Positions 3,201-63,245 of a stretch of 64,000 nucleotides of DNA are shown here, piece after piece (position 1 is the first letter of the stretch; every line of letters begins with the position of its first letter). The stretch is from Blasia pusilla (Eukaryota), in assembly GCA_050084515.1 (NCBI GenBank), contig CM114271.1, positions 868,001-932,000 on the forward strand, given 5' to 3'. The notes under the pieces are model-generated. The model worked only from the letters and a program-made list of their open reading frames with translations. It was not told where the DNA came from and searched no databases. Position numbers and translations under genes: made by a program.

Positions 3201-5303
3201 GTGGCTGAGCAGCGTCGTATGAGATCGCGACAGATCACAGCGGTTGCGTTGGTGAGCCCCATGCCTACCGAGACGATGGAGGCAGTGGCTGGGGGCGAGA
3301 CCCGAGGAGATCTACGCACCAGGGGAGATTGGGAGAGACACCCTTGGACTTCTTCGGATGTTTTGAAGGTACGCAAGGAGATGATAGCCACAACATCGAG
3401 CGTGGTTTCGGGCACTGCACGTGGAGGAGATCAGAGTTTGCAGTTGGCTGCAGGAGAGTGGCAGAGTGTTGTTGTTCGAGACGGGGTTGCACTATAGCAA
3501 CCACCGATACCCGCGCCGGAGAGTCCTACCGTAGTCACGATGGAGACTTGGGAGCCAGATATGGGCCCTAAGTTGACAGGAGGAGAGCGGCGCCGAATAC
3601 ATCAATTCCTCAAGAGCTATAGGAGCTGCTTTGCGGTTACCATGGAGGATTTGGGTACGTTGAAGGGACCGGGGATCCGCATTGAGTTGTCGAGTGATAT
3701 GTCGATCTTCCGACGACCCTACAGGTACAGTGAATCCTACTCTGAATCAGAGAGGGCTTTGATTCAGAGTAGGAGCCAGGACTTGGTCGGAGCAGGACTA
3801 GTGGAGATGTCGCATGGGGAGTATGCATCTGCCACTGTCATGCCCGCCAAGAAGGATGTGCATGGCAACTGGACGGATAGACGGATGTGTGGGGATTACC
3901 GACCTATCAATCGCGATTTAAGTCCGATAGGTATGCCATGCCCACCCTCGAGGAGATCTTTGATGCGATTGGTCATGCAAAGGTCTTGATTCATTGATTT
4001 ATGAGCCGAATACCATCACCGCCTATCAGATTGGAGGACAAAGCGTAAGACGGCATTTTGGGGCATCGATCCTCACGGGAAGGATTGTTTGTACCGGTGG
4101 CGGTTCTTACCATCAGGTTAAAGAACGCCTCGGATGAGTTTTAGAGGGTCATGGATAGGATCTTGGCTGATGTCCGGATTACGCTAGGTGTTATATTGAT
4201 GACATCGTAGTCTTTAGCGCCACGATTGAGGAGCATGAGCAACATCTAGAGGAGGTGTTTCAACGATTGCAATTACATGGGTGAAGCTACATCGAGGCAA
4301 GTGCAAGTTCTTCTACGACCAGATTGAGTACTTGGGTCATACGATATACCGGGGCCTTGGTGTTCAGCAAACGAAGGTAGAGGCTATCTCACGCATTCCA
4401 CGCCCTCTGAGATGTGAGCCGTGTTCGGCGCATTCATGGGATTGGCAAACTTCTATCGGCGATCACGTCAAAGGGATTGGTGATTATGAAGCCGCTCACC
4501 TTGCTGACCAAGGTGGATCACGAGTGGCACTTTGGGGGATAAGCGAGGAGCGAGCATTTGAGTTGCTCAGGGACAAAGTTGACATCCGCACCCATCTTGA
4601 GGAGACCGATCGGGGGCGTCCTTTCGATTGCACCTGATTGGAGCATGTTGGGGCTTGGAGCGGTGCTCACCCAAAGATGATGATGAGGGTAGAGAGTTCG
4701 TGGTGGCTTACGCTAGCCGCTCGAACAACGTTGCAGAGGCGAAGTAACAGCTCATATGAGGGTGAGTGCTTGGTCGGTGTGGGTGTCGCGCATTTCAGGT
4801 GTTACTTATTCGGCAACCCTTTACCATCATCATCGATCATCAACCCATGAAGTGGTTGATCGAGTCCGACAAGCTTACAGGGAAGCTTGCGAGATGGGCT
4901 CTGTTGTTGAAGGAGTATGATTTTCAAGTGGTACATAGACCTCGGACGCTCAACCAGGATGCAGATGGGTTGAGTCGTAACCCATGCGCAAGTCGGCCGA
5001 GATGCGATCGACCAGCTCGATGGCATGGAGAGTGATGAGGAGTTGGTGCCAGGATGGCACGCGTCCACCTATTTAGGCATGTTGGCTATGGAGAGCCGAG
5101 TGTGGAGACCGATGGCGAGGTCTAGTGGAGAGTCCTTGGATCCCGAGGCCAGTGAGGACACGACAAGTGGCCGAGATATTCATGATGATGGAGTAGTCTT
5201 GGAGTACCTTCGTACTGGCAGCGTTGAGAACATCGTGGATGCTAGAGAGCGGGATCGGATCCTATAGCGGGCCAGACGGTTCCGTTGGGAGGGGACACAT
5301 GTT

Positions 5304-6617
5304 TTGAGTGTTTGGGAGGATGGCAGAGTACGCGTAGTGCCACATCTTTCGCAGAGAGCACGACTAGTGCAGCATGCCCATGAGGAGTTGGGTCACTTTG
5401 GGGTGAAGCGGACGTACAGCTTGCTCCAGATTCAGTATTGGTGGCGAGGCATGCAGACTGACGTTCAGCAGTTTGTTGCCAGGTGCATGGTGTGTGATCG
5501 GGTCCGAGCATCGTTCAATGCTCCGACTCCACAGTTGCATCCATTACCGATCATGGGCTTAGGGTATAGATGGAGTTTGGATTTTGCAGGACCTTTGCCC
5601 TTGACGGGCGTCCGCGATCGTTATGTGTTGGTGATGGTCGAGCACTTCTCGGAGTGGATCGAGTTGGTTGCATTGCCTGAAAAAGCGAGTGAGGGAGTAG
5701 CTTATGCCTTCCTTGACAGAGTGTTGAGTCATTATGGCGCACCGGCTGAGGTGTTGACAGACCAGGGTACCGAGTTTCGCGGTGAATTCCAGGCCTTGTG
5801 TGATCAGGCGCTGATCAACCACCACCGACGGTCGCGAGATCATCCTGAGGCGGATGGATTAGCGGAGAGAGTTGTGCAGACGGTGAAGAGGGGTTTACGC
5901 AAGTTTGGCTTGCAGAGAAGTCACCTAGGAGATTGGGACCTCCAGTTGCCATGGTTGGCGATGGGATACAGATTCAACAGGCAGGCATCCTTAGCGTCTT
6001 TTTCACCGTACTTGCTACTTTATGGCCGAGAGCCAGATTTACCTGCGGCCATTCGTCGAGATGCTGGTGAGGTGCTTGACCTTGATGACCCAGATGTATG
6101 GGTGCGAGCATGTTCTCAGAGGGCTGAGTTATTTTGGAGAGTGATGCCCATGGCGTTCGAGAACTTGGCGATTGCACAACATCGGGATACGTTGAGGTAT
6201 GCGACTATTCGGGGTGGTGGTTATCGACCAACTATCCGGAGGTTTCATCAGGGAGATTATGTCTACTTGCAGCAGATGGCACCGACGACATTGGATGTGA
6301 CTGTAGGGCGCACTATCCTGAGAGTGCGTGACATTTTGCCATCAGGTGTTCTCTTGCCGGAGGGACGCGATGGTATGGTATGGAAGGACCATGTGCGTAA
6401 TTGTGCACCATGTCACCTTCCTAACATTGATGGTACAGTAGATCCGAGCTTAGCAGTAGTTCCTGCAGGCTTGCGTTGTATGTTGTGTGGTTCTGCCCGT
6501 GGTGCGACCACAATGCTAGTCTGTGATGGGTGTTTGAGAGGATGGCATATGGCATGTTTGACGCCACCTCTCACTAGGGTTCCTCAGGGACGATGGATGT
6601 GTCCCAGATGTATATAG
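5304..6617 (+). CDS. Gypsy integrase (HHCC + DDE) with C-terminal PHD finger; open remnant of pol
   Basis: HAHEELGHFG..CMVC; DFAGP..DQGTEF..GLAER; terminal CMLC..VCDGC..WHMAC..WMCPRC is a C4HC3 PHD finger (about 6477-6611). Confidence 0.9.
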   Translation: MSVWEDGRVRVVPHLSQRARLVQHAHEELGHFGVKRTYSLLQIQYWWRGMQTDVQQFVARCMVCDRVRASFNAPTPQLHPLPIMGLGYRWSLDFAGPLPLTGVRDRYVLVMVEHFSEWIELVALPEKASEGVAYAFLDRVLSHYGAPAEVLTDQGTEFRGEFQALCDQALINHHRRSRDHPEADGLAERVVQTVKRGLRKFGLQRSHLGDWDLQLPWLAMGYRFNRQASLASFSPYLLLYGREPDLPAAIRRDAGEVLDLDDPDVWVRACSQRAELFWRVMPMAFENLAIAQHRDTLRYATIRGGGYRPTIRRFHQGDYVYLQQMAPTTLDVTVGRTILRVRDILPSGVLLPEGRDGMVWKDHVRNCAPCHLPNIDGTVDPSLAVVPAGLRCMLCGSARGATTMLVCDGCLRGWHMACLTPPLTRVPQGRWMCPRCI

Positions 6618-17540: not shown

Positions 17541-17585
17541 CCATTAGTGATGTACATTAGTAGGACATGTAGTGGGCCCATAACC

Positions 17586-18271
17586 TGAGAAAATGATTGA
17601 CCAGCAGAAGTATCTCCTTGTACAAAGTCAGAGCTAGCATCACCTAGACCATCCATGATTTCAGCTTGTACACAAACAACAAGTCAATTCCTATCTCTAT
17701 TGCCAAATCAGAGCCCTACCATGATGTGACTCTTCTTACTATCTAAGAGATACTAAGAAGGATTTTACACAACCACACCTTGCACTCACACTACAGGTCC
17801 TCACATGTCACCATCTCAGAGATCAGACATGGCTCACCATTGAGCACAAACAATCTCCATCAGCATACTAGACAAAACAACCTGCCTTCCAGTGAGGCTC
17901 TAGCAAGCACAGCAATTAGTCTCAATCTCCTCTTCTTACTCTCTGATCACTCTGCAGCAGGACCAAGAGCCTCAGGAGTCCTCACCAAAATTGTGCATCT
18001 TTGTAGAGAATTGGCTTCTGCTCTCTAAAGAGAGACATTATATACATGAGGGTGAGCACTTCTGGTCCTTGGATCTTCTTGAACAGATCCATACCCTAAA
18101 TAACAGATGGTGGCTAACCCTAACTCGAGAATTGCCCTAATTCAAGGTTACCCTAAAAAGATAGAGGAACACTAAGTTATCTCTAGCTAACTAAATTAGT
18201 ATCCAACTAAGTTAGTATCTGACTAACTACTTTTAGAGCATGACTAAACTAGATATTAACAAATTTCAACA
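17586..18271 (-). repeat. Copia 3' LTR (about 686 bp)
   Basis: Near-identical to 22356-23039; preceded on the minus strand by the PPT. Confidence 0.93.
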
Positions 18272-21200
18272 CTCCCTCTTAATGAGAGTTTAGAGTAATG
18301 CCCCTCATAGATATACACTTTCTATGTTTGTCCTGTGATAGAGGTTTGGTCAGGACATCAGCTGCCATATTCTCTGTTGGACAGTAAACCAAGGAGATTT
18401 CTCTTCCTATCATTTCTCTTACAAAGTGATGTTTGATGTCAATGTGTTTTGTTCTAGGATGATGAACAGGATTTTTGCTTAATGCAATACTTCCTTTGTT
18501 GTCAACCTGTAGGGATGTAGGAGTCATCTGTTCATATCCAAGATCATTCAATAAGCTCCTTAACCAGATCACCTCCTGAGCAGCAAGAGAAAGCGCCATT
18601 ACTCTGCCTCAGTTGTAGAGAGTGCAACCGTTCTTTGTTTCTTCTGCAGCTGATCACCCCTCCACTTAACAAGAAGACATATCCACTTGTTGATCTTCTT
18701 TCATCGGTATCATCTCCCCAACTTGCATCTGAAAACCCTTCCAAGATTGGTCCATTTTCTTGATGCCTGTATTCCAAGTATGTTCTTGTTGTGCCACGCA
18801 AATATCTGAGTACTCTCTTCAGACATTTCCAATGTTCTATTGTAGGTTTGCTGGTGTACTGGCTAAGACACCAACTGGGTATGCTAAGTCTGCTCTGGTA
18901 CAGACCATAGCAAACATCAATGACCCTACAACACTTTGATATAGTGCTTGCAAATTGTCAACCTTTTCAGTTGAAATTCCCATATCTTTGCTGAGTTTGC
19001 AGCCAGGATCTAGGGGTGTTGATACAGGCTTACAATCTTGCATGTTGTACCTGATCAAGATACTCTCTATATACTTTTCTTGACTCAATCGAATCCAGCT
19101 CTCTTCCCGATTTCTCTCAATCTGAATCCCCAATAGCCACTTTGCTGGACCCAGATCAACCATCTCAAAGTTGCAACAGAGGTCTTTCTTCACTCTCTTT
19201 ACAGTGTCTAAGCTCCCTCCTAGCATCAGAGGATCATCAACATACAATGCTATGTACATAGTGGAGTCTAAGGAGTACACTCCTTGATCTGCATTGCTAC
19301 GTTGGAATCCTTTCCTGATCAGGTAAGCATCCATCTTCTCATACCAGCATCTAGGTGCTTGCTTTAGGCCATAAAGGGCTTTCTTCAAGAGACACACCTT
19401 GCCTGGATGAGTATATCCATCTGGTACCTCCATGTAGATCTCCTCTTTGAGTTCTCCATTTAAGAATGCAGTCTTCACATCCATCTGTTCCACCTCCCAA
19501 TTTTGTTGAGCTGCTAATGCCAAGAGAACTCTAATGGATCCATACCTTGCAACAGGAGCAAAGGTCTCCTGATAGTCTAAACCAGCCTCCTGATTGAAGC
19601 CTTTTGCAACCAGACGTGCCTTGTACTTCAAGATCTCATTCTTTGGTCCCCTTTTTATTCTGAAGACCCATTTGCAACCAATGGTCTTTCTACCAGGTGG
19701 CAAATCTACAAACTCCCATGTCTCATTTTTCTCTAATGAGACCTTTTCTTCTGCCACAGCCTGCTCCCCACTGTTTCAATCATTCCTGCTCATAGCCTCA
19801 CTCAAAGAGTTGGGCTCTACAACTCCTTCTTCAATAGAATGAGCTTCGTTTATCCCCAACCTTTCTACAGGTTTGGAAATTCTTCCAGATCTCCTTTGCT
19901 CTGAGATCTCCTTGATCACTCCCTCTGTGGACTCATGTGCCTCTAGAACTTGCTTGGCTGCACTTCTCCTTTGGTACACCTTCATAGGCTGATCATTTTC
20001 AACATGATCTTCCTCTCTTACACCTTGGGTGCAAGTATCTAATCCTCCACTACATTCTGCAAGTGTATCCTTTGATACTTCCTCCTTATCAGCATCTTGA
20101 TGTGAGTTCGACACTACAGGGATGTTTACAGGAGTGACAACAGAAGTGATTACTGGCATCACTCTGGTGACCATTGACTCTTTGTGCTCAGAGTCTTTCC
20201 AAAAACTCTTCTCATCAAAAGTCACATCATTGCTTGAATTGCCTTGCAGGTTCTAGGATTATACAACATGTATCCTTTCAGCCCTTCTTCATACCCAACA
20301 AATATGTACTTGTCAGCCTTTGCATCTAGTTTCCTCCTTTGTGTATCAGGGGTGAGGGCATAGCCAACACAACCAAACACTTTCAATCTAGAAATGTCAG
20401 GTTTCTTACAGACCAACACTCTTCTGGAGTTACATTCTTCAAGGCCGCTGTGGGACTGATGTTCCTCAGATAATTCGCTGTCATGATAGCTGCTCCCAGA
20501 ATTCTTGACCAAGCTTGGCATGTTGCAACATGCTCAAGGCTTTCTCATGCAAGGTTCTATTCAGCCTTTCAGCTACTCCATTTTGGTGGGGGCTGTCACG
20601 TGCCGTAACATCTTTTAATATCCCCTTGGCTGAGAGATATGCTTGAAAGTCTTTACTTGCATATTCTCCTCCTCCATCAGACCTAAGTCTCTTCACTCTT
20701 CGTTCAACTTGCCTCTCTGTCATGTTGACAAAGATAACAAATTTCTCTAGAACTTGAGCCTTGCTGCTTATCAGGTACACAAAGCTCTTTCTACTCTTGT
20801 CGTCCACAAATGACACAAAATAGCGTGCTCCTCCTAGTGACTTTACAGGCATTGGTCCACACACATCAGAGTGAATCAGGTCCAATAATCTTTCAGACCT
20901 GTTAAGTGACCTTCTGGGAGCGGGTGACTTGTGAGCTTTCCCTTGCACACAAGCCTCACAGAACTCAAGCTTCTGTGACTTCTCAATCTCCACACCACAT
21001 GACATTCCTTGCAGAGCTCGAATCTGTGTCCGATAGGTGCCCCAATCTGCAATGCCACAGATTCAGCAAGCTCCTATTCTCAGTGAGATTTACCTGCTCC
21101 TCTGGATCACATTCCAGCAGTTTGAACAAATTTCCTTGTACCACTCCTCGGCACAAGACTTTCCCGTTTCTCTCAAGTGTGCAAGTCTGGTTTGAGTTCC

Positions 21201-22355
21201 AGAAGTGCACATCAATTCCTGCCTCCAATAATTTCTTAACTGACAACAGATTTTTTATGTAATCTGCAACATATAACACTCCACGCAACTGCCATTTCAT
21301 CAATTTGCTTTCATCAGCACTGAAGAAAATAGAAACTGAGCCAACCCCTCCCACAGGACTTAACAATCCAGAAGCACTTCTCACGTGATGATTACTTGCT
21401 GGTTTTAGGTCTGAGAACAACTCCTCTTGATAACAGACATGTGATGTTGCACCGGAGTCCACCCACCATCCACTGCTCCTCTTAAGATCTTTCTCACACG
21501 AGGCCATCATGAAAGAACAACAACTTTCATCAGATGTGTATTCAGTAGTCATCACTCCAGCAACCTTTGCCTTATCCTTCTCCCTGTAGGAGGTACTTTG
21601 CTTCTCCATCAACTTCTCTTGATTCTTGACTGCAGATCCACTCCTTTTAACTTTCTCTCCCCTTTTCAACTTCTTTGACAATTCGAGCAAGATGTCCCTT
21701 CTCTGCCACAAATGTAACAAGTTCTGGTCTCTTTCCACTTCCTATCCCTGTTGAGCATGACTGTTTTTCCACAATCACCTCGCTTCTGGTCATATCTCAG
21801 GAGCTTGTTGGTCCTGATTCCCATGTAAGCAAATCTGCCTCCCAGGTTTCAAAGATTGTAACCATTGTATCAAATCGAGGAGGTAAGGAGGATAGCAACA
21901 TGGTTACCTTCCATATAGGAATCAGTTCTGTCCAACTGCTTTCACTTGTGCAAAAGTTGACTCCATTTTGGCAATGTGAGCGCAACTCTTTCTGTGTCAG
22001 CCATCCTTGTCGAGCTCAATGTCTTCCACCTTTGCATAGCTAGAGTCAAAGCTGACTCCTTGTTCAAACTCTTCAGCTTGGACCAGATCTCCCAAGCATT
22101 GCTTATACCATCCAACTCCTCATAGAGGAGTTAGGTCTGACTTTGAGTAAGATAGCTGCCAATTGATTTTCTTGTCTCCAAGCGAAGTTTACCACAAGCT
22201 CTTCTAGATTGTGAGGTTTCATCTCAACATACACCCACAACCCTTTCAGCATTAGAATGTCCATCATGGTTCTGGACCATTCTCTATAGTTCCCACCATC
22301 TAACTTCTCTCACTGCTGAAATCACTAAGGAGAAAGGTTTGGGTGGGCCCATAAC

Positions 22356-23039
22356 TGAGAATATGATTGACCAGCGAAGTATCTCCTTGTACAAAGTCAG
22401 AGCTAGCATCAGCTAGACCATCCATGATTTCAGCTTGTACACAATCAACAAATCAATTCCTATCTCTATTGCCAAATCAGAGCCCTACCATGATGTGACT
22501 CTTCTTACTATCTAAGAGATACTAAGAAGGATTTACACCAACCACACCTTGCACTCACACTACAGGTCCTCACATGTCACCATCTCGAGATCGACATGGC
22601 TCACCATTGAGCACAAACAATCTCCATCAACATACTAGACAAAACAACCTGCCTTCCGGTGAGGCTCTAGCAAGCACAATTAGTCTAATCTCCTCTTCTA
22701 CTCTCTGCTCACTTTCACTTTGCGGGACCAAGAGCCTCAGGAGTCCTCACCAAAATTGTGCATCTTCAGAGAATTGGCTTCTGCTCTCTAAAACAGAGAC
22801 ATTATATACATGAGGGTGAGCACCGGCGGCCCTTAGATCTTCTTGAATGCAGATCCATACCCTAAATAAATGTGATGGTGGCTAACCCTAACTCGAGAAT
22901 TGCCCTAATTCAAGGTTACCCTAAAAAGATAGAGGAACACTAAGTTATCTCTAGCTAACTAAATTAGTATCCAACTAAGTTAGTATCCGACTAACTATTT
23001 TTAGAGCATGACTAAACTAGATATTAACAAATTTCAACA
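22356..23039 (-). repeat. Copia 5' LTR (about 684 bp)
   Basis: Near-identical to 17586-18271; followed on the minus strand by PBS and gag. Confidence 0.93.
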
Positions 23040-23074: not shown

Positions 23075-23554
23075 CCATTAGTGATGTACATTAGTAGGAC
23101 ATGTTTGGGCCCATAACGAAAATGATTGAAGTATATCCCTTGTACAAAGTGGGGTTAATATGCCCCAAAGACATCCATGATTTAGGGTACACAAACAACA
23201 AGTCAATTCCTTCTCTATTGCCAAGTCAGAGCCCGTGTGCCCATGATGAGACTCTTCTTACTATCTAAGAGATACTAAAAGGATTCTGCAACCACACCGT
23301 TTTGTCCCTAAACTCCTCACATGTCACCATCTCGGAATGTTGGGACATGGCTCACCATTGAGCACAAACAATCTCCATCAAAGATACTAGACAAAACAAC
23401 CTGCCTTCCGGTGAGGCCTGGGTTTGACATTGTCTCAATCTCCTCTTCCTACTCTGCTCACTTTGCAGCGGGACCAAGAGCCCAGATCCCACCAAAACTC
23501 AGTGCATCCGAGAATTGGCGCTCTCTGGGCCGGACATTATATACATGAGGGTGA
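23075..23554 (-). repeat. Third, truncated and indel-rich Copia LTR with PBS and flanking leader
   Basis: Duplicates 17541-18056, including CCATTAGTGATGTACATTAGTAGGACATGT and GGGCCCATAAC. Confidence 0.85.
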
Positions 23555-23582
23555 CCTCCCGGGAAGTCCTGGTGCTGCATCC
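23549..23582 (+). pseudogene. 5S rRNA 3'-terminal fragment
   Basis: GGGTGACCTCCCGGGAAGTCCTGGTGCTGCATCC matches the last about 34 nt of plant 5S rRNA and the 5S-like copy at 44842-44958. Confidence 0.85.
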
Positions 23583-23592
23583 AACCTCTTCC

Positions 23593-23960
23593 TCGCCCAT
23601 CATCTCCACTCGAGAAATGGGTTGTCCTTAGCTACTGCGATTGTGTATTGTAGGCAGCGGGTCTCCATAGCGTTGTAGCGTGCCCAGGCTAATGTGATTT
23701 TGCGGCGGGCTCACGCTGTGGGAGATGCCGGCGCTAGAGGCCCACTTAGTAGTAGTCATGACTCTCTTGTTGTTGCTGATATTGTCTCTGCTGTTGGTGA
23801 GATTCGTCGTTAAGGGGGGGATTCCCCCCCTTCTTCCTTTTCTGGTCTTGTTGTGGACTTCAGGTTTTGACTCTTTGAGTCCCCCTCTTTTGTACTTCCG
23901 ATGGGTTTTTCCATCACTAGTTTTTATCGAAGTGCATCTTCTTTTTTCATTGTCTGGATA
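23593..23960 (+). mobile_element. 3' end fragment of the CRE-like non-LTR element
   Basis: CGCCCATCATCTCCACTCGAGAAATGGGTTGTCCTTAGC.. aligns with 62881-63240 (ATAIVYCRQRVSIAL vs AIAILYCRQRVSIAL, plus the 3' UTR). Confidence 0.88.
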
Positions 23961-24039
23961 AGGGGTTTTCCCATACTGCCTTGGTTGGAACTTATTGGTG
24001 ACTCTCTCCAACAAAGCTTCTCCCCAATTGGAGAAAGCT

Positions 24040-24300
24040 TTAGAAGTTAATGGACTTTGGAGGTGGGCTCAAGCTGTCGAAGATGCCAGAGCCAAAGAGC
24101 CAGATGCCCATTTAATAGTAATCATAATATCAGCTGTGAGTCTGATATTGTCTCTACTGTTGGTAAGTAAGTTGAGTAGACAAGAGGATGCACCCTCTTC
24201 TTCCTTCGCAGGGCCGGATGTGGCCTTTACAGATACTTGACCCTGAATCCCCGTCTTTTGTTTTCATGCATATTTATTGAGGTTCATTTTTCCAATTGGA
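24040..24300 (+). mobile_element. Second, more decayed CRE-like 3' fragment
   Basis: NGLWRWAQAVEDARA resembles ENGLLWRAHAVGDANA at 62975-63025; CTGATATTGTCTCTACTGTTGGT is shared. Confidence 0.65.
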
Positions 24301-25070
24301 TACATGATAGTCAAGCACATGTCATTTTTCCAATTGGATACATGATAGTCAAGCACACTCAGTACGTATGCACAAGAACCTATAGACCTGTTGTGTCCAT
24401 AGACTGAAGGAGACTGAATTTCCATTGTTTACTAATTCTTTTGTACATCAACGGCAGTTCTGCGAGTTCAACCCAACGATTATCTGATAATAGTGTTTAC
24501 AAGAAATCTCCAATTGATATCTTCCAACTTCGGATGCTGGGCGTGCTATCAGAGAAATCAACTATCATATCACACTACTTCTAGTAGGCTTGAGAGCTTG
24601 CAACTGTCATATATGTTAAGCCGTAGCCAGTATCGATGTGGTTTGGGCAGTACCATCATACGCACTTCTATTGGGTCTTGTAATGATTGAGAAAATTTCA
24701 TGACCCAATTCTACCTACTGGCAATCCAATACCTGATCTGAAGACTTCACACTGCAACGGGGTAAAATATTCGAGGGGAGTATCTATAGGGTGGGGCTTG
24801 TCTATGAATACTATCAACTCGTGTACATGAATGCCGACGATGAGTTCATCATCACGGTTTAATATAGTGAACTTTGTGAAGTCCTCTCAAGTTTTGCACC
24901 TGCCACTGCCAGAACACCTTCAACGTGCTGTGCTGAATGTGTGGTTCTCTACAGGCTATAAAACGAATCGCACACACTACCCGCGAGAAGTGGCAGAACT
25001 ATGACCTTGGTTTTATTTGTTACTAATACATGGGGAAGGAACCCTCGCTGCCAAGCCCGATCTATCCTTT

Positions 25071-28000
25071 CTAAACACAGAATGACACTTGTCTGACAAC
25101 ATTGCTATTGAAGATGGCGTAGGCCTGCGCAGGAACACAAGTAATAATGGTAAGCTTTCATCCTCTTACTACACCGCTGGTCTTACGGCGTCCCAGTTTG
25201 GAAAATCAAACATAAAACGAACTTGTGAATCACTTTCTGACGAACCCCCGCCCTGAAAGTGCACTACTTACTTGCTTGCTGCTGAGACCAATCTTCTCGA
25301 GGTCGTCAAGCTGCAAGGACAGATGCAACGCATCATATGATCAAAATCAATGGTAAGAAGTTGGCGATGGTGTTCGATCAAGCACGGTAAAGGATGGGAT
25401 GTGTATGATTTAGGGTTGATGTGGAGGGTGGACAACCTAGGAGTTGTAGCGGATGCATAGAAATCGAGATATATCCTCAATTGTTTCACTTAGCCTAGGA
25501 AGAATTGTCAGAGCACGTACATGCTTTAGTGGCCGCGGAGACGCTTTCCGGAGCTCTAAAATGGAATCAGTTCTTCTTTCTCCAAACCCCTGCACAAGAA
25601 AATGTTGTTAGATTCAAATGAGTCTTACTTCAGCAGCCTGAAGGATCGGGCCCTGGGGTTGAACAAGATGCTCGAAATCAAGTAGCTGTCGACGAGGGAT
25701 GCACAGATTCTTACTTTCAGTAGAAGAAGTTGCTCCCTGCAATAGTTACAAAACAATATCAACATGTCAGATTACAGAGTTCCAAATGGGACATACTACC
25801 CGAGCACCTACCTGCGTATGAAAGCAACTACTCTAGGCACCATAATTTGACCAGGTTCCATCTTGCATTACATAGACACAAAATAAATACATAAATAAAG
25901 CATCTGCGTCATACCTCGGAGCTGTGTTTAGAATGTCCAGGTACTGCTCCACCAATATATGCTGAGAAAAGTACCCAAATCCAAAACTTTTGTTAGAGGG
26001 ATGTTCCGCAATCGACAAAGGTTTCTTAGAATAAATTCTCGCATGTTATATCAAAGAGACGACTACAGCAGCACCAGTCCAAGGCGGAAAGAGGAGGACC
26101 ACTTCTGTACATCTACTTGGGTGGATGTCGACAATAGTCTCGTACTAGTGAGGAGAGGGAAGGATTGAGGAATCTAACCCGTATGGCTAAACTTGATCTG
26201 CTGAATCTTTCATAGGGAGTCTCCGCATCGTTTGTCGAAGGACTCATCATAGGAGTCCTCATGGGAGTTCCATCGCATGAGTTGAAGAGATTAAACAAAC
26301 CAGAATCCCCTGGAGTGCTTGGAATCGTTGGAGAGTCTGCATTGGTAGCATTAGGACTAAGAGGAGCTAGGGCTCTTGCCAAACTCTTCAGCTTGGCACT
26401 TAGTGGAGGAGATGCGTGGACTTGCAGTAGCAGTTTGGCGCTGGTTGGTGTACAGGGGGAAGATTGTCCCTGAAATTCGTTCTCCTTATCTGCTTCATCG
26501 CCTGAATAACATGTCATCAAGAACAATAAGTAATACAATCTTCAGTGGGCTCCAGCAGCCGTTCAGACATGACAAACTGAAAGCAGACTTCAGGAAACAT
26601 AGAGCAAGATCTTTACCGAAGAAATCTGTTAGCCCATCTGCATCTTGAAACAAGGGATTGGTGAAATTGTTGGAGTTATCCTCGCTGAATTGTCGTGGCA
26701 GCTCACAGACAGGATGCGCAAGCTCATCAGTTCGCAGGCTATGCACGGCATCCAAAGAGTCCATTGACTTTCGGAGTGGGCTCGTATGTGCGATGGGGTT
26801 CTCCTGCATAAAAAGTGAAGATGGCTTGCTTAGGTGTGGAACTAGAACTTTACTCTACTGAATAGCTAATGCCACAAAGTCTAAACGCTTCAATCTGTGT
26901 TTCCTACTTCAATATGACCTGGGTGAAGATGAGATGTGTACCTTGTTCGGAGAGGCCAGACGTGTTGCGTTAATCTTCACCCTGCACGCATACCCGAAAG
27001 CTCGCAGGTGTTAGATCATTGCTGTTTACTCTAAATGATAATCACAGTTGTCATGAAAGAGCGATGCAGTAAAACGAGCATCCGACCTTGTCTTGATACT
27101 GGCGCGCTCCAAAAGATTTCTCTGACTACTGGGTGTCTTCGGACTCTGAGCGTGGGGCGGAGATTTCATGAGTGCTTTGAGTTGTGCAGGACTACTGGGT
27201 ACGGTCACATTTTTGCTCGTTGTCCTTGAAGCCTTAGCTTCTCTCCAAGCTTGAAGTCTAGCTGCCATGTCTAGCTTTTCTCTCGCGGATTCATCATGGC
27301 GTTCTCCATGATTTATTTGCCTTGACCTAGCTGCGAGGCTCAAAGTTTTGGTCGCCTCAAGGTAGGATCCTGGATTCTGCAGTCACAAAAAAGTATTTCT
27401 CAAGCATAGACACGGACTCTGACGTTGGTCTGGACCATGCATCACTTTCTAGTCAACAACAACTACGCTCACTTGCTTGCCGACACCAAACAAGCTCAGG
27501 GCAAGGGACGAACTAGGAGGCATATAACTAGATTCAGATGAACTAACTAGGAGTCCAGATTGCTGATATCGAAGGAGGAACATATTGAAAAAATAGTTGT
27601 CTGAAGGCGAGTATTGTTTACCAAGCAGGCAACCATCACAGAACGACTAGAACCACCGAGAGAATCTCGCAATATACGAGTTAACTTGCTGTCCCGGTAG
27701 GGCACCCGTGCTTCATTCGCATTTAGAGCATTGATAACGTTCGACAAGGCGAACAGAGATTGGTTTATTTGACTGCTTTCGGCAATCCTCACACCATCAT
27801 TACCAGTCTTGCGATTATCCTCGTTCCCTGCAACAGTCCAAATTCAATGAGGAACTTACCAGGAATCGTTTGCTAATGAATAAGCCCAACATGTCAAGGT
27901 CTCGAATGGTAGTGGCAGAGGGATGACTTCACCACGGCTCTACAATGTCTTCGCAACGTAGTTGATTTAGTTCACGTACTTTACAAAACAACTACAGACA

Positions 28001-29819
28001 TGATGCAACAGAGCATCACCAGAGCAAAGGACCTACCAGCCAAATCAATTAAGTTGAGCTTGGCTTCTCTTTCCACGTTGGTGACAGCATCAGTAGAGGT
28101 GGTTGTTACGACTAGCACTCCATGGCTACGGCTAGACACGTCGTTGAGTGCCGTCGGCCCAACTCTACGTCTTGCACATCCGTCTGCCAAAAGAGTACTG
28201 AACTCCTCGACACTGTGAATCTGAACCTGTTGCAAATCCACACACGTTTAACGTTCTCACCAAGAATCCTCAGCCGAGACCTAACTGGCATAACTATAGT
28301 TTTGTGGTGACTATCGTCGTAGCTCTACCTTGGCCAACCCGCGAAATTGTATGTTACCATTCTGGTCCTCCATCACTGAAACCTCATTTCTCATCGCCAA
28401 AAGATCGTAGCAGCGATCCATGTAGACTTCATAATAAGAGATTGCCACCTTGCAATTGGCTCTACCGAAAATACACCTCACTGCCAACAACATGAATCCT
28501 GGATCCATCTCTGTACCCTGCAATTTGGAGAAGTATAGCTGAAGGAGTTAGTATCGTTTCACAATATCCAAAGAAATTTCAGACAATAAGTACTGAATGG
28601 GAGTTTAACCAATGGAGGTTTTTGGAAGAGGGGGAGGGGGAGGGGGCGGGGTATACCTGCATAGTGTGAGTCTTCCCGCTACCAGTTGCACCGTAGGCGA
28701 AAACAGTGTTGTTACACCCTTCGAACAGGGAGGACAACAGAGGCTCCACCTCCTTTGCGAACAATTCATCGTTTTTGGGTGTTTCGCCATAGCATGCGTC
28801 CAGCTTATACTCCTCACACCGACTGCAATCGCAAGAACTCTAATTACACAAAATTTCCCCGTTATCCCTTGCCTGCTCTTACATAGTTATAACTCTCGCA
28901 TGCCTAATTAGTTGTGACTAGGAATCAGCTCTTCAAAACGATCTTGCAGATAAAATACTCGGTCCAAAGCTAAGGTCATCGGCTAAAAACTATTATAGTT
29001 TAGTGTAGGTGGAAAGATTCGTTGGCAGCTTCTGATTTTAGAAGAATGTAGTTTGATCTTCGCTACATTTGCCTGGTGTAGATCATTAGGCATGAGATCT
29101 GATCACAAAGAGTGGATCTTTTACCAGACTTTTGACCTCAGAAGCCAGGAGATTCGTAAATTGATTCTCTTAGTAGGCATTGAAGTAGTAGCCCCTTCGT
29201 CGAGTACCGGGCTGTGCACAATGAAAGGAAGCCTTCATTGTCTATGGTTCGCTGTCGCAATGGATTAAACTCTTAATTCTTTTGGCGATCTTAGTCACCC
29301 GGTCCCACTTCTGGAAGGGCAAAGAGAGTGTTTGATGGTCTGTACAATTTTCTTTCAATCTTCCTCCACTAGGATTCCTTCATCATTGCAAGAATTTCAT
29401 ATTCATATTCAGGCCACATTTGGAAGTTAGAATTTCCTTTCCAGCTTCCGAAACGGCATTTAGTGTTTGTGAGTCGTAGCAAACTCCCTAAGATATCTTG
29501 TGACCGAATCCATTTTCCCTACTGGGCCTACCTAGAGCTTCCAACCCACACGAAATGTAATGAGCAACAGGAAAAATAACCCGAACCTTGAGGGTTCGGC
29601 AGAAATTGTGAGGCTGTCCTCTGCATGGCCCTTAGCAATACAGGTGCAATTGCGCCGTCCTCCCGGTGCACTCGAGATTTCCGACGGAAGAAAGGGGCGG
29701 ACTCTCACTACAACCCGCACTTTATGTCCACTTCCCGTTTCGATGATCCGCTGAGGAGGCCCTAGTCTCGATCGGCCCGGCGTCGATCGACCAGGAGTCC
29801 CTTTCAATGGACTTATCAT
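25071..29819 (-). CDS. Kinesin-10 family motor (KIF22/Kid-like, plant KIN10B/C type) with C-terminal HhH; 14 exons: 29819-29587, 28822-28657, 28517-28329, 28226-28037, 27827-27622, 27376-27087, 26981-26942, 26803-26617, 26501-26179, 25961-25915, 25736-25715, 25589-25521, 25310-25272, 25124-25071
   Basis: [11 protein letters not shown]-loop [55 protein letters not shown]; Hh[30 protein letters not shown]. All 13 introns are GT-AG with consistent phases. Confidence 0.92.
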
Positions 29820-30259
29820 GTCTTCGAACTTTCCAAGTTAACAGCGGATATTTCTTTTGACCTCTATGTGCAGTGCATAGAAGAGCCTTCAATATCTGTA
29901 AGAGAAACGGAAGACAATGTTTAAATTTCCGAAGGTGGGAGCTCCTGGAGTGGACGTCTTAGACGCACACCGAGTCCACTTAGAAGCTCCGTCCTTCAAT
30001 TCCGCACACGACAGGCGAAAACGACAGGAATATGGGGCCTCTCTCAGACCACGAAGATGGCTAAAATAATTGCCAACACACTTAAAAGAAACTCGTACTT
30101 TTTTCCTTTCTCCAGAGCTTTGTAATCTGGCGCTCGCATTTCCAAATTGACCGAAGAGTGCCGAGATGCAGCTTTGAGTTCCATGACTGGGACAGACTGC
30201 GACCGAGCAAGAACTATAGCTCCTCACGACGGGAACTTCAAGAATACATCAAGATCTCT

Positions 30260-34980: not shown

Positions 34981-35622
34981 TGTCACGTCTTTTAGGATAG
35001 ATCGATGAGATCTAGTAGAGCGCCTTCGTGAGTAGTGGACAACAGATCAGTAGGTTGAGGATGACCTACTCAGGCCCCGGGAAACCTGAGAGAGCAAGTT
35101 TCCCCTTCGTTTCGGCTCATTTTGAGCCATATTGAGGAACTTACTATTTTAGGTAATTACCATTTTGAGTATATGATCAACTTTGTATTTTTGGTAAGTG
35201 GCCCTTGATCTCCTACATCAGGTCAAGAGCCAAGGAGGTGACTTGGGAGAATAGGTTACCATGGAGAGAGCTTGGGAGAGGGGAGGGGTATACCTCGTGG
35301 AGAGAGAGCTTGAGAGTTCATTCTCTCTTTGTTGAACCTCTTGGCATGAGGCGGCGGAGCTATGGTCCTTCGCCTTGTGAGTGTAACCCAAGCCTCTCAT
35401 TAGTAGAGTGGGTTTGGTTTGACATGAGGGAGAGTGCACACCTTTGAGATCTATGGTGTAAGATGGTGTAGAGAGAGATTGGATCTTACTTTATTGGAGA
35501 TATTTTGGTACTTCTCACCTCTGTGTTTGGATGTCATGAGTTAGAATGGGATCGTGCGTGTTTGTGTGTGTGTGTTCGGTGACAGAGATGTATGTTGTGT
35601 AGCGATGTGTATGCGCACAACA
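34981..35622 (+). mobile_element. Solo LTR (about 640 bp) of the DNMT-Gypsy family
   Basis: TGTCACG...GCGCACAACA (TG..CA). Contains contiguously the pieces found at 500-790, 1294-1368 and 6798-6925. Confidence 0.88.
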
Positions 35623-38600
35623 TGACCAATATGATGCCCAATTTTATATATGATTTTTTTTTAAATATTTCATTACTAAATCTTGTCCATAACTACTCAT
35701 GTTTTCCTTGCTTCTTGCCCTTGATTTGGCAATTGGCTCAAAGGTTTCAAACTTTGCTTGTCTTGCCTTTGTCTCAGCAAGTAGCTACCCCTCTTTCTCA
35801 CCTAAGCCTAATCATAAGACACGTGCGCATCTCGCCCACTGTTAGTCTCACGGTTGGTTTCGCCGCCCTTCCTACTCTCGCGACTAGCTAATTTAGGTTT
35901 TGATTTTTGTGGGTCACACCAAGGTTTTTCATGCTTGGAACCATGATCCTGACCCGATTCCCAAGTGCTCGATAGCATGGGCGTTATAAACTTAGCCATC
36001 CACGACATCATATCTACACTATATATATCACCAATCTTCCCAAAATATTGGTAGATCCACACGCAAAAATATATACTCACACATGTATACCAAGACAACG
36101 CAAAACAAATGAACTAAAAATCATATGGCCAAATCATCCTCAAGTATATATTGGCATATTGAGTGATATCCATCCTTTATCATGAGGGAATCCAAACTCT
36201 AACACGATAACACTTTAGCTCCAACCAAACCCTAGCAATAGAGGTGCTCCAAAGACTCAACATGAGAAAGATGGTTGGAGAAAGTCATTTCTCCCTCTCG
36301 TCTACCCTTGGGAAGAGCCAAAAGAGCTCTTTAAAAAAAAAAAGCTCAAACTAGCAACATGCGCACAAAAATTATTGAGTGACCTTTGACTTGACTAGTG
36401 GATCATATGGCCCAAATAGTGAAAAAGAAGAATTGTGCTAGACAAAAATCTCAATGCGATAGAGACGTTCAACCTCATTCGACATCTTGAGACGAAGTTA
36501 TATTTGAACATCCCGTTGGTCCTCTACACTGTTGACACGATAGAACCCTACTTATAAGCTAACTAAGATGTGACAATACACTCATATCCCCATTACCAAA
36601 ATTTTATTTTTTGGATATTATATAACTATCTATCTACTTTTAGAAAAAGTACAATTTCTATTCTTAAAAAAAGTGCGATCTTTAAAAATATTTAAACTCT
36701 ATAATAGTCTAGAGACACTTCACCATTTTATAAAAATGATTCTTATTCTACAATATTCCTTAGAAATTAAAATAAAATCATTTCTTTTAGTTAGATTATA
36801 TAAGAAATAATTATGTTCTCCATTCATAGACATCCATGTATAATTCATCTTATTTTCTTTCCACAAAAGCTAATATAAAACTCACATTTCCTCTTTGGAA
36901 AGAACATCATTTCTTTTGACAGAGTTGCTATCTTTCCCCAATTAAAAGTGATTAATATTGATACTATCAAAATACTGATGAAAAACATTATTCAAAGTAT
37001 TGGTATTCTATCAAAACATATTTAGTTTATATAATGGTAGATACCTCTCTATCATTTTATCTATTATATCTATTATTCTTCTCTTTATTGTAAAATAAAT
37101 CCATCATTCCATTATGAGATGAGCATTCAATTCTTTCAGCAATTCCTTTCAACTTCTTGTAACCTTCCTCCTCATTCCTTAATTATAACGTACGTAAGAT
37201 ACATCATAACTCAATAATTATGGTGGACTATCTCCAACATCCATATCTATACTATTAATAGAGGGAAAGTTCTTCATTTGCAAGAGCTTACTTGCTTGAA
37301 ACACAATAGTGGGGCAACAAGAAAATGGTTTCACAAATATGGCAATAATTGATCTATTTTAGATTATTAAGAGATGAACGTTTCTTGTTTTTCTAAAGCC
37401 TCTTTGCTTGATAAACAACAAGAAAATATTTTCATAATAGGAGGAAAAAAGAAAGTTAGCTTAGAGATAATTTCGCAACCCTCATAACCAAACACATGCT
37501 AATAGGGAATATTATAACTCTAGGCTCACACTAGGATGGAAGCGTGTCGAAATCTCACGAATGAGAAATGAGTTGCAGATGCAAGACGTAAGCTTTGAGG
37601 GGCGTCTTAAATGATGAAGGTTATGACTTGGTTGAACAAGACTAGACGACAAGCAAGACTTAAGAAGAGCTTAAGTCCCATAAGATTTGGCCGCCAAGGA
37701 GACTACAACCTGACTTGGAACTTGATTTAGCGTTTTGGGGTTCTCGATGTTTGAGTTCACAACGGGAGGATCCAAGATGTATTTGGGATAACTAAATTGG
37801 CATTGGAAAGCTCGTGAGAAGATGATTCTAACGTACTAAATATGTAAAACAAACGCATGAGCAGAGATCTAGAAACCAACCCAAGCTATCATAACGATAG
37901 TTGGGTTGAGGGCCACAAGGTGCAAGTCAAGAGGACTTTCCTAAAATTATATGTAAGGGGAAGGGTCTCCAAGGATGTTGGGAACTTGAATCCCACCTTG
38001 GAAACTATAAGGATGAACCAAGGGCAAAAGATGGATTGAGAGATTGGCTTTGAGGTTTGGACACCAACCTTGGACGTTGATCTGTGACTCATATATCAAG
38101 TTCAGGTTAGAGACTCGTCTTAGGTCCATTGGGCAGTTGGGATTGCTAGGCGCACAAACATCGTTTTAATTTCATAGACTATTAAGGAAGTATATCCCAA
38201 GTCTTGAAGGGCTTTCATGTATTGTGGAGTGAAGGTTTGGGTTGGTATCCGACCTCGTCTAGATCGGTTGAGCTTGAAGGATGGCTCTAGACTAAGACTT
38301 CGGAAACACAAGGATGGTTAATCTAAAATGTGGCTTATATGAATGTGTTTGGGAGCAGATAAATAAGGAGAGTTTTTCAAAAACTTATTGAATATTCAAT
38401 CATGAATTTTCCATTGGACATCCCATCATTGACATGAAACCTATTTTCTTACCTATATGTAGATAATAAACATATAAACTCAATAATGGAATATTAGAAA
38501 AATTATATAACATTGAAAATTCCATAAATTTTCTTAAAATTTTGACAAAAATTGCATACCAAATATTTCGGTAAACCTTGATAATATGACTATCCAATAT

Positions 38601-41345: not shown

Positions 41346-44300
41346 CTACTTCTTGGACGGCGCCTTCTTGCCGCCGAGCTTGCTGACGGCGGCGCACAGA
41401 CGGCACGGGAGCGTGTCCAGACTGACGGCGCGCGTGTGGTTGTAGTTACCCAGAGCGCCGCAACGCCGCCACGCGTGGTACTCTGCGTACTCCACGGGGC
41501 TGTCTGCGAGGCGCTTGACGTAGTTGGCGAGGTCCTCCATGGACGTGAAGTCGGAGCCCAAGATGATGGATTTGGGCGGCACCAAGTCCAGGACGTTGGG
41601 GGCGCCGAAGTAGATGGGGACAGAGCCCACGTCCAGCGCGTAGAACAGCTTCTCAGTCACGTAGCTTTCCGTGAGCGTGTTCTCTATGGCGAGGACGAAC
41701 TTGTAGTGGGACATGGCGCAGTGCAGGCTCTGGCTCCAGCTCCTGCCGCCGCCGCCCTCTCTGCATCTGGGGTACATGTCCAGCATGGCGTCCTGCCCGC
41801 CCACGTTGTTCAGGCACTTGCCGAACGAATGGTGGGGGAGCAGAGGGAGGAGGCTGCGCGCGGTTTCCTGTCGCTCCTTGAGGCAGCGCGATGAAGACCA
41901 GTATACCAGGATCTCCTGCAAGAAAAAGAGAGAGAGAGAGAGTGCCACACACACCACGCGAGTTCAGGCTTTCAGGATCCATGAATTCCACCACAACCCT
42001 CCTGGAAGTAAGTCTACAGACAAGTCCAGGCTTCGAGAACTCGTGAGTTTCTAGCTATCTACAATGCAAGTCTGCCTGCGGCAAGAGGTTTTCTCGTAAG
42101 CTCAGGCTTTGAGGAGTCGTGAATTCCTGGCTGCACTGCAGGTCTGCCTACGGCAAGAGGTTTCCTCGCAGGCTCAAGCTTTGAGGACTGATCGATCCCT
42201 CACCATAGTTGAAGTAGGTATCCAGGCAGCTTCAGGCTTTGAGGACGCTAATGCAAGTGAATCTCCACACGAGCTCAGGCTTTGAGGACCCTAATGCAAG
42301 TGAATCTCCGTACAAGCTCAGGCTTTGAGGAGCCTATGGGAGTGAGTCTCAACACAAGTTTCAGGCTTTGAGAGCTCTTGAATCCTTGACCCTAATGCAC
42401 TTACGCATCCACACGAGTTTATCTTGTGGGGACTCGGGAATCCCGATTCTAGTTCCGATCCCATACAAGTTCAGGCAAGAGGTCCCATGAATCCAGACAA
42501 CCGAGTCTCCTGACGAGTTCAAGCCACGAGGATTCATAGCTCCATGACCCTCATGCAAGTCAGTCGTCATCCACGTTCAGGCCTTGAGGACCCTAATGCG
42601 AGTAAGTCTCAACACAAGGTCAGGCTTTACCCGTAAATCCCTGGCCCTCTGAGGGTAGGTCTCCACTCCTAGTTCAGTCTGGAGGACAAATGAATCTGGA
42701 CGGCGTGGTGGTTCGGGCATCTTGGGCAAACACCGAGTGTGTGACACACTCGGTGTATCCCCAGCTAACAACGAATATAGTTGAGAAATCTCAGCACAGA
42801 TACAGGCTCAATGTGTATGCAGTTGTGTACAATTTGTAATCTCAGCACAAGTACGATTGAAGGGTTCCCCCATCATTTTTTTCTTCAATTTGTCTTTTAA
42901 CTTTTGTGTAATGACTGTTAGGGAGGTTTCCTGATCTGCAACACACTTATTCCAATAAAAAGCAGGTTTTTTTGGGGGTTTATATTTTGGAGCAGTGCAC
43001 ACATGAACTTGGGAGAAATCAAGACTAGACTTTGGGGTAAGAAATGCATGACACTGAGAAAGCACAAGCTGTGACAAATGCACGTACAGGATTTTTCTCT
43101 GTGGAAATGTAGTGATTGCGGTTCATGTGAAAGAAGCTTCCTGCATAAGTCACTTGCAAATCATCCTTGGCGTGATAGCTGACAAAAATATCCTGCGAAG
43201 CTCGAAGTTTTGCTGGTTCCAAATCCATGAAGACCCTCAGAGGATCCCCCACACTCCTCTGTTTGCAGCACAACAAAACATTGTATTAGATGACACATCT
43301 CCTCCCTCAGAGCCTCTCAGAACCATCGACCATGACTAGCTATGGTGATCATACCCTGCTACATTTCAAGGTGCATTCCCACTGCTCGATCTCTGCTGCT
43401 TCAGGAACGAAAACAAGGAATTCAAAATCTACTGTTCAATAGGGTGCCACTACCTTGTGATTTGGAGCATTACACATGGTCATAATCAGGTTTCATCTAA
43501 CCACCTGGTCCCTTTGGTATGCCGCATCCTAATCTAATGCAATCAGATCATCAGAATTAGAGGACAAATTTTCAGAGTGGTTTCACTATTTATGACCTGG
43601 TTCATGAGGGCAAGGATTGGTTCTCGCGAGGACAACCTGGTCCATGGAGGCAGGACCTTACCGTCAAGAATGAATGATGGATTTTTGCTGACAGATTTTA
43701 ATTCAGTGCTATGGCACAGATGTGCAATTTACCTGCAGGACAGTCCAGTGCATGGGACCATGACCTTCTCCTGCATAGTGCACACACAGAGAAACTGTGC
43801 TCATTAAGTAGTGTCTGTCTTAGCCTTGTGACTATGGACTCTGGACCTGTGCTAGAGACTGGGATGGGTGCACAGAGGAAGAAGAGAAGAAAGTGCCATA
43901 TGATAGGACGGAAACTCTCTCATGTAGTGTGAGTGCTAGGTACACAAAGTGTTGGTGCAGAGTTTCTGAGTATCAACCAAGAAGCACTTTACCACATTAT
44001 CTACCTTACCTGATTGGGATCCCCTATACCCGATACTTACCAGTGCAGCACCTTTGGTAATCTATGCTACTGAACATGTTCAACAGTCCTTGTGCTATCA
44101 GCGTAGCAATGAACATGTTAACTGTACTCCTTAACTAGTGCCTGTCATAGACTTGTGACCAGAGACCCTGCACCCTGGTAAGCCAGTGCCAGGCACTGGG
44201 ATGGGCGTGGGCGTCGGAAGAGGAAGAAGTGAAGAGAGTATCATGTCAGAGGAGGGAGCCAACACTCTGTATGGTCAGCACTCATAGAGTGCGAGCGCTG

Positions 44301-53681: not shown

Positions 53682-54201
53682 TGTCGTGCACATACACATC
53701 CTTATATAATATACATCGTTGTCACCAAATGCACATACAAGCACACATGATCCCATGCTAACTCATGGAATCCACACAACGAGACAATAAGTACCAAAAT
53801 AACAAGGCAAGGAGAACCATAGCTCCGTCGTCTCATGCCAAAAGGTTCAACAAAGAGAGAATGAGCTCTCAAGCTCTCTCTCTTGGAAGTATACCCCTTC
53901 CTTTTCCCAAGCTCTCTCCACGGTGACCTATGCTCTCATGTCACCTCCTTGGCTCTTGACCTGCTGTAGTGACTCAAGGGCCAATTCCTAAAGTGGAATG
54001 TCAACTTATGTGCAATATGGAAACTTACCCAAAATATTAAGTTTCTCTATATGGCTCAAAATGAGCCGAAACGAAGGGGAAATCTACTCTCTCAAGTTAC
54101 CCGTGGCTTCAGCAAGTCATTATCAACTTTTTGAGGTTGTCCTCCAATATCTCCGAAGGCGATCTACTAGATCTCATTGATCCATCATAAAAGACGTGAC
54201 A
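53682..54201 (-). mobile_element. Solo LTR of the DNMT-Gypsy family with an internal deletion
   Basis: Reverse complement of 34981-35622 lacking about 120 bp; flanked by AACCT/AACTT (near-perfect 5-bp TSD). Confidence 0.85.
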
Positions 54202-56815: not shown

Positions 56816-57449
56816 TGTTGTGCGCATACACATTGCTTCAGAACATACATCGCTGTTGCCAAACATACACACAAACATGCACAATCCCATGTTAACTCAT
56901 GGTTTCCAAACAACGAGACAAGAAGTACCAAAATATCTCCAATAAATCAAGTAGATCCAATCTCTCTCAACACCATAACTCTCAAATATGTGCTCTCTCA
57001 CATGTCTGTCTCAATGTCAAACCAAACCCACTCTCCTAATGAGAGGCTTGGGTTACACTCACAAGACAAGGGACCATAGCTTCGTCGCCTCATGCCAAGA
57101 GGTTTAACAAAGAGAGAATGAGCTCTCAAGCTCTCTCTCCTTGAGGTATAGCCCCTTTCCTCTCCCAAGCTCTCTCCTCGGTAACCTATGCTCGCAGGTC
57201 ACCTCCTTGGCTCTTGACGTGTTGTAGCGCGTCAAGGGCTGCTTCCAAAAATGGAAAGTAAACTCTACCAAACATGGAAACTTACCCAAAATGCTAAGTT
57301 TCTCTATATGGTTCCAAACGAAGGAGAAACCTGCTCTCTCAGGTTTCCTGGGACATCAACAAGTCATCCTTGACCTCCTGAGCATGTCCTCCGCTACTCG
57401 CGAAGGCGCTCTACCAGATCTCTCCGATCTATCCAAAAAAGTCGTGACA
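56816..57449 (-). mobile_element. Solo LTR of the DNMT-Gypsy family
   Basis: TGTTGTGCGCATAC...GTCGTGACA is the reverse complement of the 34981-35622 LTR across its length. Confidence 0.87.
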
Positions 57450-63200: not shown

Positions 63201-63245
63201 TATTTTCTATTTATTATTACACTTTTCTTCTCTATCAGGCCCAAT
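60228..63245 (+). mobile_element. CRE-clade-like non-LTR retrotransposon (RT + zinc knuckle + restriction-like endonuclease), pseudogenised and probably 5'-truncated
   Basis: RT: LLALSKEGGGIHPIAIGE, HQFGV..GCEA, VLQVDVENALNSV, RQGDPLGG, SWADDTHI, GLRVLGVPLG. Zinc knuckle CEC..GVHLARC; RLE-like RVDL..ADVVVTDP..KK...Y..FIPLAIEMYG. One long frame broken by about 5 stops and 1 frameshift; no APE domain seen. Confidence 0.85.

Follow-up and report, generated by a model that had tools for sequence, protein, structure and literature searches.

The closest described counterparts of a joint between 5S rRNA and a LINE are the mammalian small-RNA/LINE-1 chimeras (U6/L1; U1-U5, U3 and 5S/L1) and those of the Magnaporthe MGL-LINE, in which a small RNA sequence lies 5' of a 5'-truncated LINE 3' end. 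These chimeras hold the copy of a Pol III RNA, result from one insertion, have unique junctions and give a product that does not propagate. In the catalogue of L1 chimeras 5S makes up 10.5% of the 253 entries (10.1101/2025.02.02.635956), serial template jumps are described for a fungal LINE (PMC2104539), and template jumping by the R2 reverse transcriptase is documented in vitro (PMC8857657). SINE3 and other 5S-derived SINEs (zebrafish, fruit bats, lizards, fungi) also consist of 5S-derived sequence followed by a LINE-derived tail; their 5S-like head is complete, with its internal promoter, and many copies have one and the same junction. Target-specific LINEs, such as Mutsu, R2, Utopia and CRE, have a constant 3' junction in their target, and Mutsu, described as an L1/Tx1-type element, adjoins 5S gene sequence by inserting ~20 nt from the 5S 5' end (PMC5340908). 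Finally, the plant TRIM Cassandra carries a whole 5S with its promoter inside both LTRs.

The locus described here lies in a window of 64,000 nt, which is the whole stretch of DNA that was analysed. As in the mammalian and Magnaporthe chimeras, a small RNA piece stands 5' of a 5'-truncated LINE 3' end, and the copying of a Pol III RNA, the single insertion, the unique junction and the non-propagating product would apply here as well. Unlike in those chimeras, the partner is an R2-group endonuclease LINE without poly(A), the organism is a liverwort, and the 5S is in sense orientation, has a 3' trailer, is only 35 nt long and comes with no target-site duplication that could be found; in human 5S/L1 chimeras the 5S is reported to be often antisense (10.1101/2025.02.02.635956). 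The succession of 5S-derived and LINE-derived sequence is that of the 5S-derived SINEs, but here 5S is reduced to its last 35 nt, with no family seen. The locus shares with Mutsu the neighbourhood of LINE and 5S gene sequence, and with the R2-type elements the reverse transcriptase and CCHC/RLE architecture; however, neither the L1/Tx1 type nor the insertion site of Mutsu is found here, and a constant 3' junction is displayed by none of the three LINE copies in the window. As in Cassandra, 5S-derived sequence occurs in a retroelement context, although here a 35-nt end adjoins a non-LTR tail. Among the top literature matches, none dealt with small-RNA/LINE chimeras in plants or with 5S-associated retrotransposons in liverworts, which is no proof of their absence.

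Structure of the 5S/LINE locus

The window is transposable element-rich plant DNA with 43.5% G+C and no N. The host is a liverwort, as indicated by a neighbouring ESCO-like exon for which all 4 of the 4 matches at E <= 1e-10 are liverwort proteins (67-72% identity). Elsewhere in the window, an ORF at 5268-6617 encodes an integrase whose C-terminus carries a PHD finger (Integrase_H2C2, rve, PHD). The following features are referred to below.

17572-23039, minus strand: Copia element with RVT_2, integrase and gag-related domains, its LTRs 93.8% identical
23075-23554, minus strand: LTR', a partial, diverged third LTR copy that ends at GGGTGA
23549-23583, plus strand: 5S rRNA 3' end, approximately model positions 86-120, its first 6 nt (GGGTGA) common to LTR'
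23584-23593, plus strand: 10-nt spacer ACCTCTTCCT, matching the 3' flank/trailer of the high-copy 5S rDNA unit and ending where the T-run of that unit begins
23594-23813, plus strand: LINE ORF remnant, the last ~73 codons, in frame with one premature stop; stop codon at 23811-23813
23814-23960, plus strand: LINE 3' UTR without poly(A), delimited by alignment and read depth; 3' end near 23957-23960
23961-24047, no strand: 87 bp between two LINE tails, with no assigned origin
24048-24300, plus strand: second 5'-truncated tail from this LINE group, much older than the first and 68% identical to 23690-23893
60228-63245, plus strand: reference LINE copy of 3 kb, 5'-truncated and frameshifted (RVT_1, E 8e-12)

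Three pieces, namely the relic LTR, the 5S end and the LINE tail, thus follow one another in a fixed order and orientation and with exact boundaries. The preserved 5S 3' end, the spacer of about 10 nt, the LINE tail of about 370 bp homologous to 60228-63245 and the LTR boundary at GGGTGA, all reported in the preliminary description, were each recovered.

On the upstream side, LTR' is 77.6-79% identical to the LTRs of the neighbouring Copia element (17541-18055 and 22344-22819), and it is a separate diverged copy, no LTR of the intact Copia at 17572-23039. Its homology to both full LTRs runs through GGGTGA and stops exactly there, after which the window reads as 5S; both full LTRs go on differently past this 6-nt overlap and there is no 5S in them. 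LTR' lacks the 216 bp that both full LTRs carry beyond this point, and this remainder was not found in 23900-30000. At the other end of LTR', its start (23075-23100) is 100% identical to the 26 bp outside the lower LTR end of the Copia element (17541-17566) while the LTR bodies are only 79% alike, which hints at a possible recombination or conversion between elements.

The 5S piece itself, 23549-23583, is an exact 5S rRNA 3' end. The 34-nt string at 23549-23582 has no other match in the window at up to 3 mismatches, and none of 100 shuffles gave any match. In cmscan, 23549-23583 falls on the final ~35 of the 120 positions of the 5S model; the low score of the whole match, 16.1 bits, is due to LTR sequence making up its "5' part". 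The piece is identical at 30/34 positions to the window's one full-length 5S-like copy at 44841-44959 on the minus strand and, by eye, at 35/35 positions to the 5S fragment of contig L001, the one contig matched in a metagenome scan with the 22-nt 5S end. On that contig, a 5'-truncated 5S and its terminator stand isolated at 1440-1530; the surrounding DNA is AT-rich, non-coding and plant-like, and holds no LINE. As the 5S part of the joint covers only model positions ~86-120, box A, the intermediate element and most of box C, at what we take to be their positions, are absent; with nothing of 5S upstream of position ~86, this copy is without internal promoter.

For the spacer and for the copies described below, contigs from three sequencing runs of one study (X1, X2 and X3) were used, of which 6080, 184 and 282, respectively, were placed at a likeness of at least 80%; the contig evidence consists of the 18 loose ends and 24 contig pieces listed (221 and 6538 lie beyond those). 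The window has a single occurrence of the spacer, AACCTCTTCCT in its 10-11 nt form. One contig of X2 follows the sequence as far as 23593, beyond which it reads TTTTCTCAAACACG... (TTTTCTC...), and two X2 contigs carry 5S body before 23549. By arithmetic on the depth tables, the X2 contigs over 23549-23593 have a depth of ~570-1090 compared to ~3 for single-copy sequence; hence, the contigs there represent the high-copy 5S unit of the species. Furthermore, X2 agrees with the unique flank of the window at 153/154 nt. Together, the contig through 23593, the high depth and the flank match point to the 10-nt spacer being the 5S unit's own 3' flank, with the LINE part apparently starting where the T-run terminator of 5S would start, an assignment of the spacer that rests on one X2 contig. 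By eye, AACCTCTTCCT also fits the LINE at 8/11 positions, in frame, given a 9-nt deletion. The 5S side stops where the 5S unit has the first T of its terminator run, and this end fits a primary transcript and genomic DNA equally. The T-run motif of the 5S flank, TTTTCTCAAACACG, has 0 occurrences on both strands of the window. Likewise, no match to 18S/26S was obtained within the window, and there is no trace of an rDNA or 5S array around the 5S/LINE joint; in bryophytes, 5S genes are reported to be linked to 35S rDNA in every species examined (PMC6739443).

The LINE tail (23594-23927) aligns to 62881-63210 with 77.5% identity over 338 bp (E 5e-66) and, at the protein level, to the LINE copy at 60228-63245 with 67% identity over 89 aa (E 3e-30), the frame and the position of the stop codon being kept. 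The repeat depth on the tail drops to zero past the 23918-23968 bin. Seven runs of at least four T, including T5, T5 and T6, are found in the tail between 23698 and 23947, and runs of this length would stop Pol III. The tail differs from the majority letter of the contigs at 11 listed positions (~3%). These differences are skewed, with G in the window and A elsewhere at 10, 8 and 5 places in X1, X2 and X3, respectively, compared to C in the window and T elsewhere at 1 place in each run.

Compared to related proteins, the reference LINE copy covers aa 174-895 of a Closterium protein of 1340 aa, and hence is 5'-truncated and frameshifted; its CCHC, PD..D (RLE) and C-terminal parts align to the same protein. 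Among 26 relatives of near-equal length, the top 7 are Riccia fluitans proteins (42-52% identity). A profile of 13 full-length relatives matched 19 PDB sequences at E <= 0.01, the best being R2 proteins (E 6e-33) on both the reverse transcriptase and the CCHC/restriction-like endonuclease stretches, whereas L1 ORF2 reaches only 3e-12. Pfam gave no family for two C-terminal segments of the LINE, and a PDB search with a single C-terminal segment gave nothing relevant. The profile matches support an assignment to the R2 group, of the reverse transcriptase plus CCHC/restriction-like endonuclease type, and the earlier label "CRE-like" is borne out to the level of an R2-group restriction-like-endonuclease LINE.

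Downstream of the tail, the 87 bp are not the LTR remainder and show no significant similarity to the LINE or to the first tail (236/500 and 72/500 shuffles score as high). As these 87 bp lie in between, a direct abutment of the two LINE tails was excluded. The second tail carries single-copy read depth only, and its 3' part matches other copies via joints 23909>24264. In X1, a joint 23940>23745 shows another locus in which the LINE 3' end is followed, after 5 other letters, by a 5'-truncated tail; this LINE is therefore arranged tail to tail more than once. A target-site duplication, also raised in the preliminary description, was not found between the flanks of the 5S/LINE locus: they have no common word of at least 7 nt, and none of at least 8 nt even with 1 mismatch. 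The longest word common to both is 6 nt, at 40 nt from the 3' end.

Copies elsewhere in the window and in sequencing contigs

Each of the 3 LINE copies found in the window is 5'-truncated and lies in unrelated flanks, the three 3' flanks being unlike each other. The 5S flank follows the LINE 3' end in 0 of these 3 copies, and no tRNA genes (0 in the window) lie near them. A 5S-like sequence after the 62-kb LINE copy was considered and rejected, since shuffled sequence scored as high in 282/500 and 35/500 cases and the search at E <= 10 gave no 5S match.

In the sequencing contigs the LINE tail is high-copy and dispersed, with a summed depth in the thousands compared to 7-12 (X1) and ~3 (X2) for flanking single-copy sequence, depth not being equal to copy number. 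The loose ends with most support at 23594, 29 contigs in X1 and 6 in X2, extend upstream into LINE sequence like 62855-62880 and not into 5S. A common 3'-flank loose end of the LINE is absent among the six best-supported in X1, of which the lowest listed support is 8 contigs, and none of the contig pieces listed spans the exact 23549-23594 junction. A second 5S::LINE joint is nevertheless present in one X2 contig (depth 6.1), with 5S to 23584, 6 filler nt and LINE from ~23757. Its shorter side measures 27 nt, and as joints so short can arise from repeats its support is thin. The 13 "between" letters of this second X2 joint equal 63045-63057. Since its breakpoints are different, the second joint points to separate events rather than to one propagating master, as far as can be judged from the contig sequences.

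Other stretches of the contig data have a restricted bearing. No run covers 23102-23203 or 23969-24019, and X1 has near-zero depth on the 5S piece, neither of which is informative; exact single-copy X1 contigs lie on 24025-24235 and 24337-24500. X3 has 0 contigs at 99% identity or above, even though it is from the same sample as X1, and in 28 of its contigs a G>A-rich 5S stands before 23554. From this pattern we infer that X3 may be a converted (bisulfite-like) library, a view of X3 that enters none of the arguments made here.

The 5S-like sequence at 44841-44959 on the minus strand is full-length and diverged (56.8 bits) and lies within 43791-45541, between copies of a ~320-575-bp unit, three of them in tandem and 66-72% identical. 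No T-run occurs for ~150 nt after it. For 43791-45541, a relic 5S array, an element like Cassandra and a repeat with a 5S head are all conceivable; a review of such elements appears to hold no report of Cassandra from a bryophyte (PMC10946416). The flank of this 5S-like copy starts with CGCCCATAAT, like the start of the tail, and a LINE tail behind it was tried and rejected (z = -0.7 and 0.0). The window also contains a four-copy dispersed ~640-bp repeat (499-791, 34981-35624, 53802-54208 and 57021-57456). A U6-like match at 57246-57344 was set aside, being weak (23.9 bits, E 0.12) and not reproduced in the paralogous repeat copy.

Origin of the 5S/LINE joint

To a single chimeric retrocopy, formed when the reverse transcriptase jumped from the LINE RNA to an unprocessed 5S transcript, we give an even chance, and of the readings considered this one, listed in the preliminary description as a template-switch chimera, fits best. 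In such an event, reverse transcription of the R2-group LINE would have taken place where old transposon-derived DNA had been nicked or broken. The enzyme would have copied ~367 nt from the 3' end of the LINE RNA, switched to a 5S RNA at its 3' end, copied ~45 nt of it and stopped. The cDNA end would then have joined the upstream target, the relic Copia LTR, via the 6-nt GGGTGA overlap, and the product, without promoter, would be a dead by-product. The template jump, for which a prior ligation of the two RNAs could stand in, the RNA origin of the 5S piece and its origin in a single event are what we infer from the arrangement of the pieces. Indeed, the 5S piece has the orientation of the LINE 3' end and stands 5' of it, with only 10 nt between them, which match the flank of the 5S unit. 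Since the 5S template would have kept this ~10-nt 3' trailer, it would have been a primary or partly trimmed Pol III transcript. One event would account for the order and orientation of the pieces, for the transcript-like 5S end, for a 5' truncation that involves microhomology and for a location outside rDNA. The same layout is described for U6/L1 and other same-orientation small-RNA/LINE chimeras (10.1101/2025.02.02.635956).

Several observations stand against the chimera. There is no target-site duplication, and as the LTR remainder is absent downstream, a deletion of the target must be assumed. Moreover, the template would be a rare unprocessed 5S transcript and not the abundant mature 5S, and genomic DNA is a simpler source of the trailer. 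The older LINE tail 87 bp downstream could also hint at a repeated use of one site.

It is unlikely that the LINE was inserted, by targeting or preference, at a genomic 5S terminator and that a deletion through the GGGTGA overlap then removed the 5' part of 5S up to the LTR. In detail, the endonuclease would cut at or near the T-run just 3' of 5S and leave 5'-truncated copies. The retention of the 10-nt genomic 5S flank, with the LINE beginning at the position where the T-run starts, would be expected from such a cut, and the second 5S::LINE joint in X2 as well as the older LINE tail 87 bp downstream are in line with it. Furthermore, the LINE is of the restriction-like-endonuclease type, most members of which are described as target-specific (PMC4640811), and 5S-specific LINEs exist, as reported for Mutsu in zebrafish (PMC5340908). 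However, 5S flank follows none of the window's three LINE 3' ends, the motif of this flank occurs nowhere in the window, the three LINE 3' flanks are mutually unlike, and no common 3'-flank loose end is seen among the six best-supported in X1. Neither rDNA nor a 5S array is present here, yet 5S is reported to sit in rDNA units in bryophytes (PMC6739443). A whole 5S gene in its native upstream context is missing, 5S being cut at position ~86 and joined to the LTR, and two extra rearrangements would be required, one within 45 nt and one at the 3' side. The 5S-targeted insertion proposed in the preliminary description is thus weakened by the 0/3 result for the LINE 3' ends in the window.

Rather improbable is a patchwork made at the DNA level, in which break repair or illegitimate recombination joined a piece of 5S rDNA to a LINE tail that was already there, with no reverse transcription of 5S. 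The microhomology at the LTR/5S boundary, the absence of a target-site duplication, the transposon-rich and rearranged region and the presence of genomic 5S flank would all agree with such a repair. But it leaves unexplained that the 5S end lies exactly at the start of the T-run and that the LINE part extends exactly to the LINE 3' end, and it would not lead one to expect an independent 5S::LINE joint in X2.

We consider it highly doubtful that the locus is a 5'-truncated copy of a 5S-headed, SINE-like RNA, whose master would have lost its 5S terminator to the LINE tail, would have been transcribed by Pol III read-through and would have been retrotransposed by the LINE. A master gene of this kind is expected to have the structure seen here, that is 5S, flank without T-run and LINE tail; a stringent partner would require the LINE 3' end, which the tail holds, and the 5' truncation with microhomology is compatible with a retrocopy. 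However, only 5S positions ~86-120 are present, so that this copy has no internal promoter, and the seven runs of at least four T lie in the tail. The loose ends listed at 23594 (29 in X1, 6 in X2) read on as LINE, and the contigs listed hold one other joint, with different breakpoints, and no common junction. In addition, no 5S-derived SINE appears to be known in plants according to a review (PMC10946416). For this copy the 5S-derived SINE of the preliminary description is therefore not supported, given the missing promoter, the T-runs and the lack of a common junction seen. It is similarly a long shot that liverworts have a non-autonomous element with a 5S head, moved by an R2-group LINE and made when a LINE tail took the place of a 5S gene's terminator, and that the junction records its origin or a truncated copy of it.

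An assembly artefact joining repeats is scarcely credible: repeats do lie on both sides and no junction-spanning contig is among those listed, but the two junctions are 45 nt apart with overlaps of only 6 nt and 0 nt, which are too short to mislead an assembler, and exact single-copy X1 contigs lie on 24025-24235 and 24337-24500.

Implications

If the joint is a chimeric retrocopy, it would be the in vivo footprint of a template jump by a plant R2-group reverse transcriptase on a Pol III transcript that still bears its trailer. This kind of event is already known from mammals and fungi; here it would involve an R2-group LINE in a bryophyte, and the chimera would add a bryophyte case and a non-L1 partner to events known mainly from mammals and one fungus. 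If instead the reading as a 5S-headed element were true, it would be the first 5S-derived SINE reported in plants. For the annotation of bryophyte genomes, where the practical value is modest, 5S fragments beside LINE tails need not be SINEs or rDNA relics.
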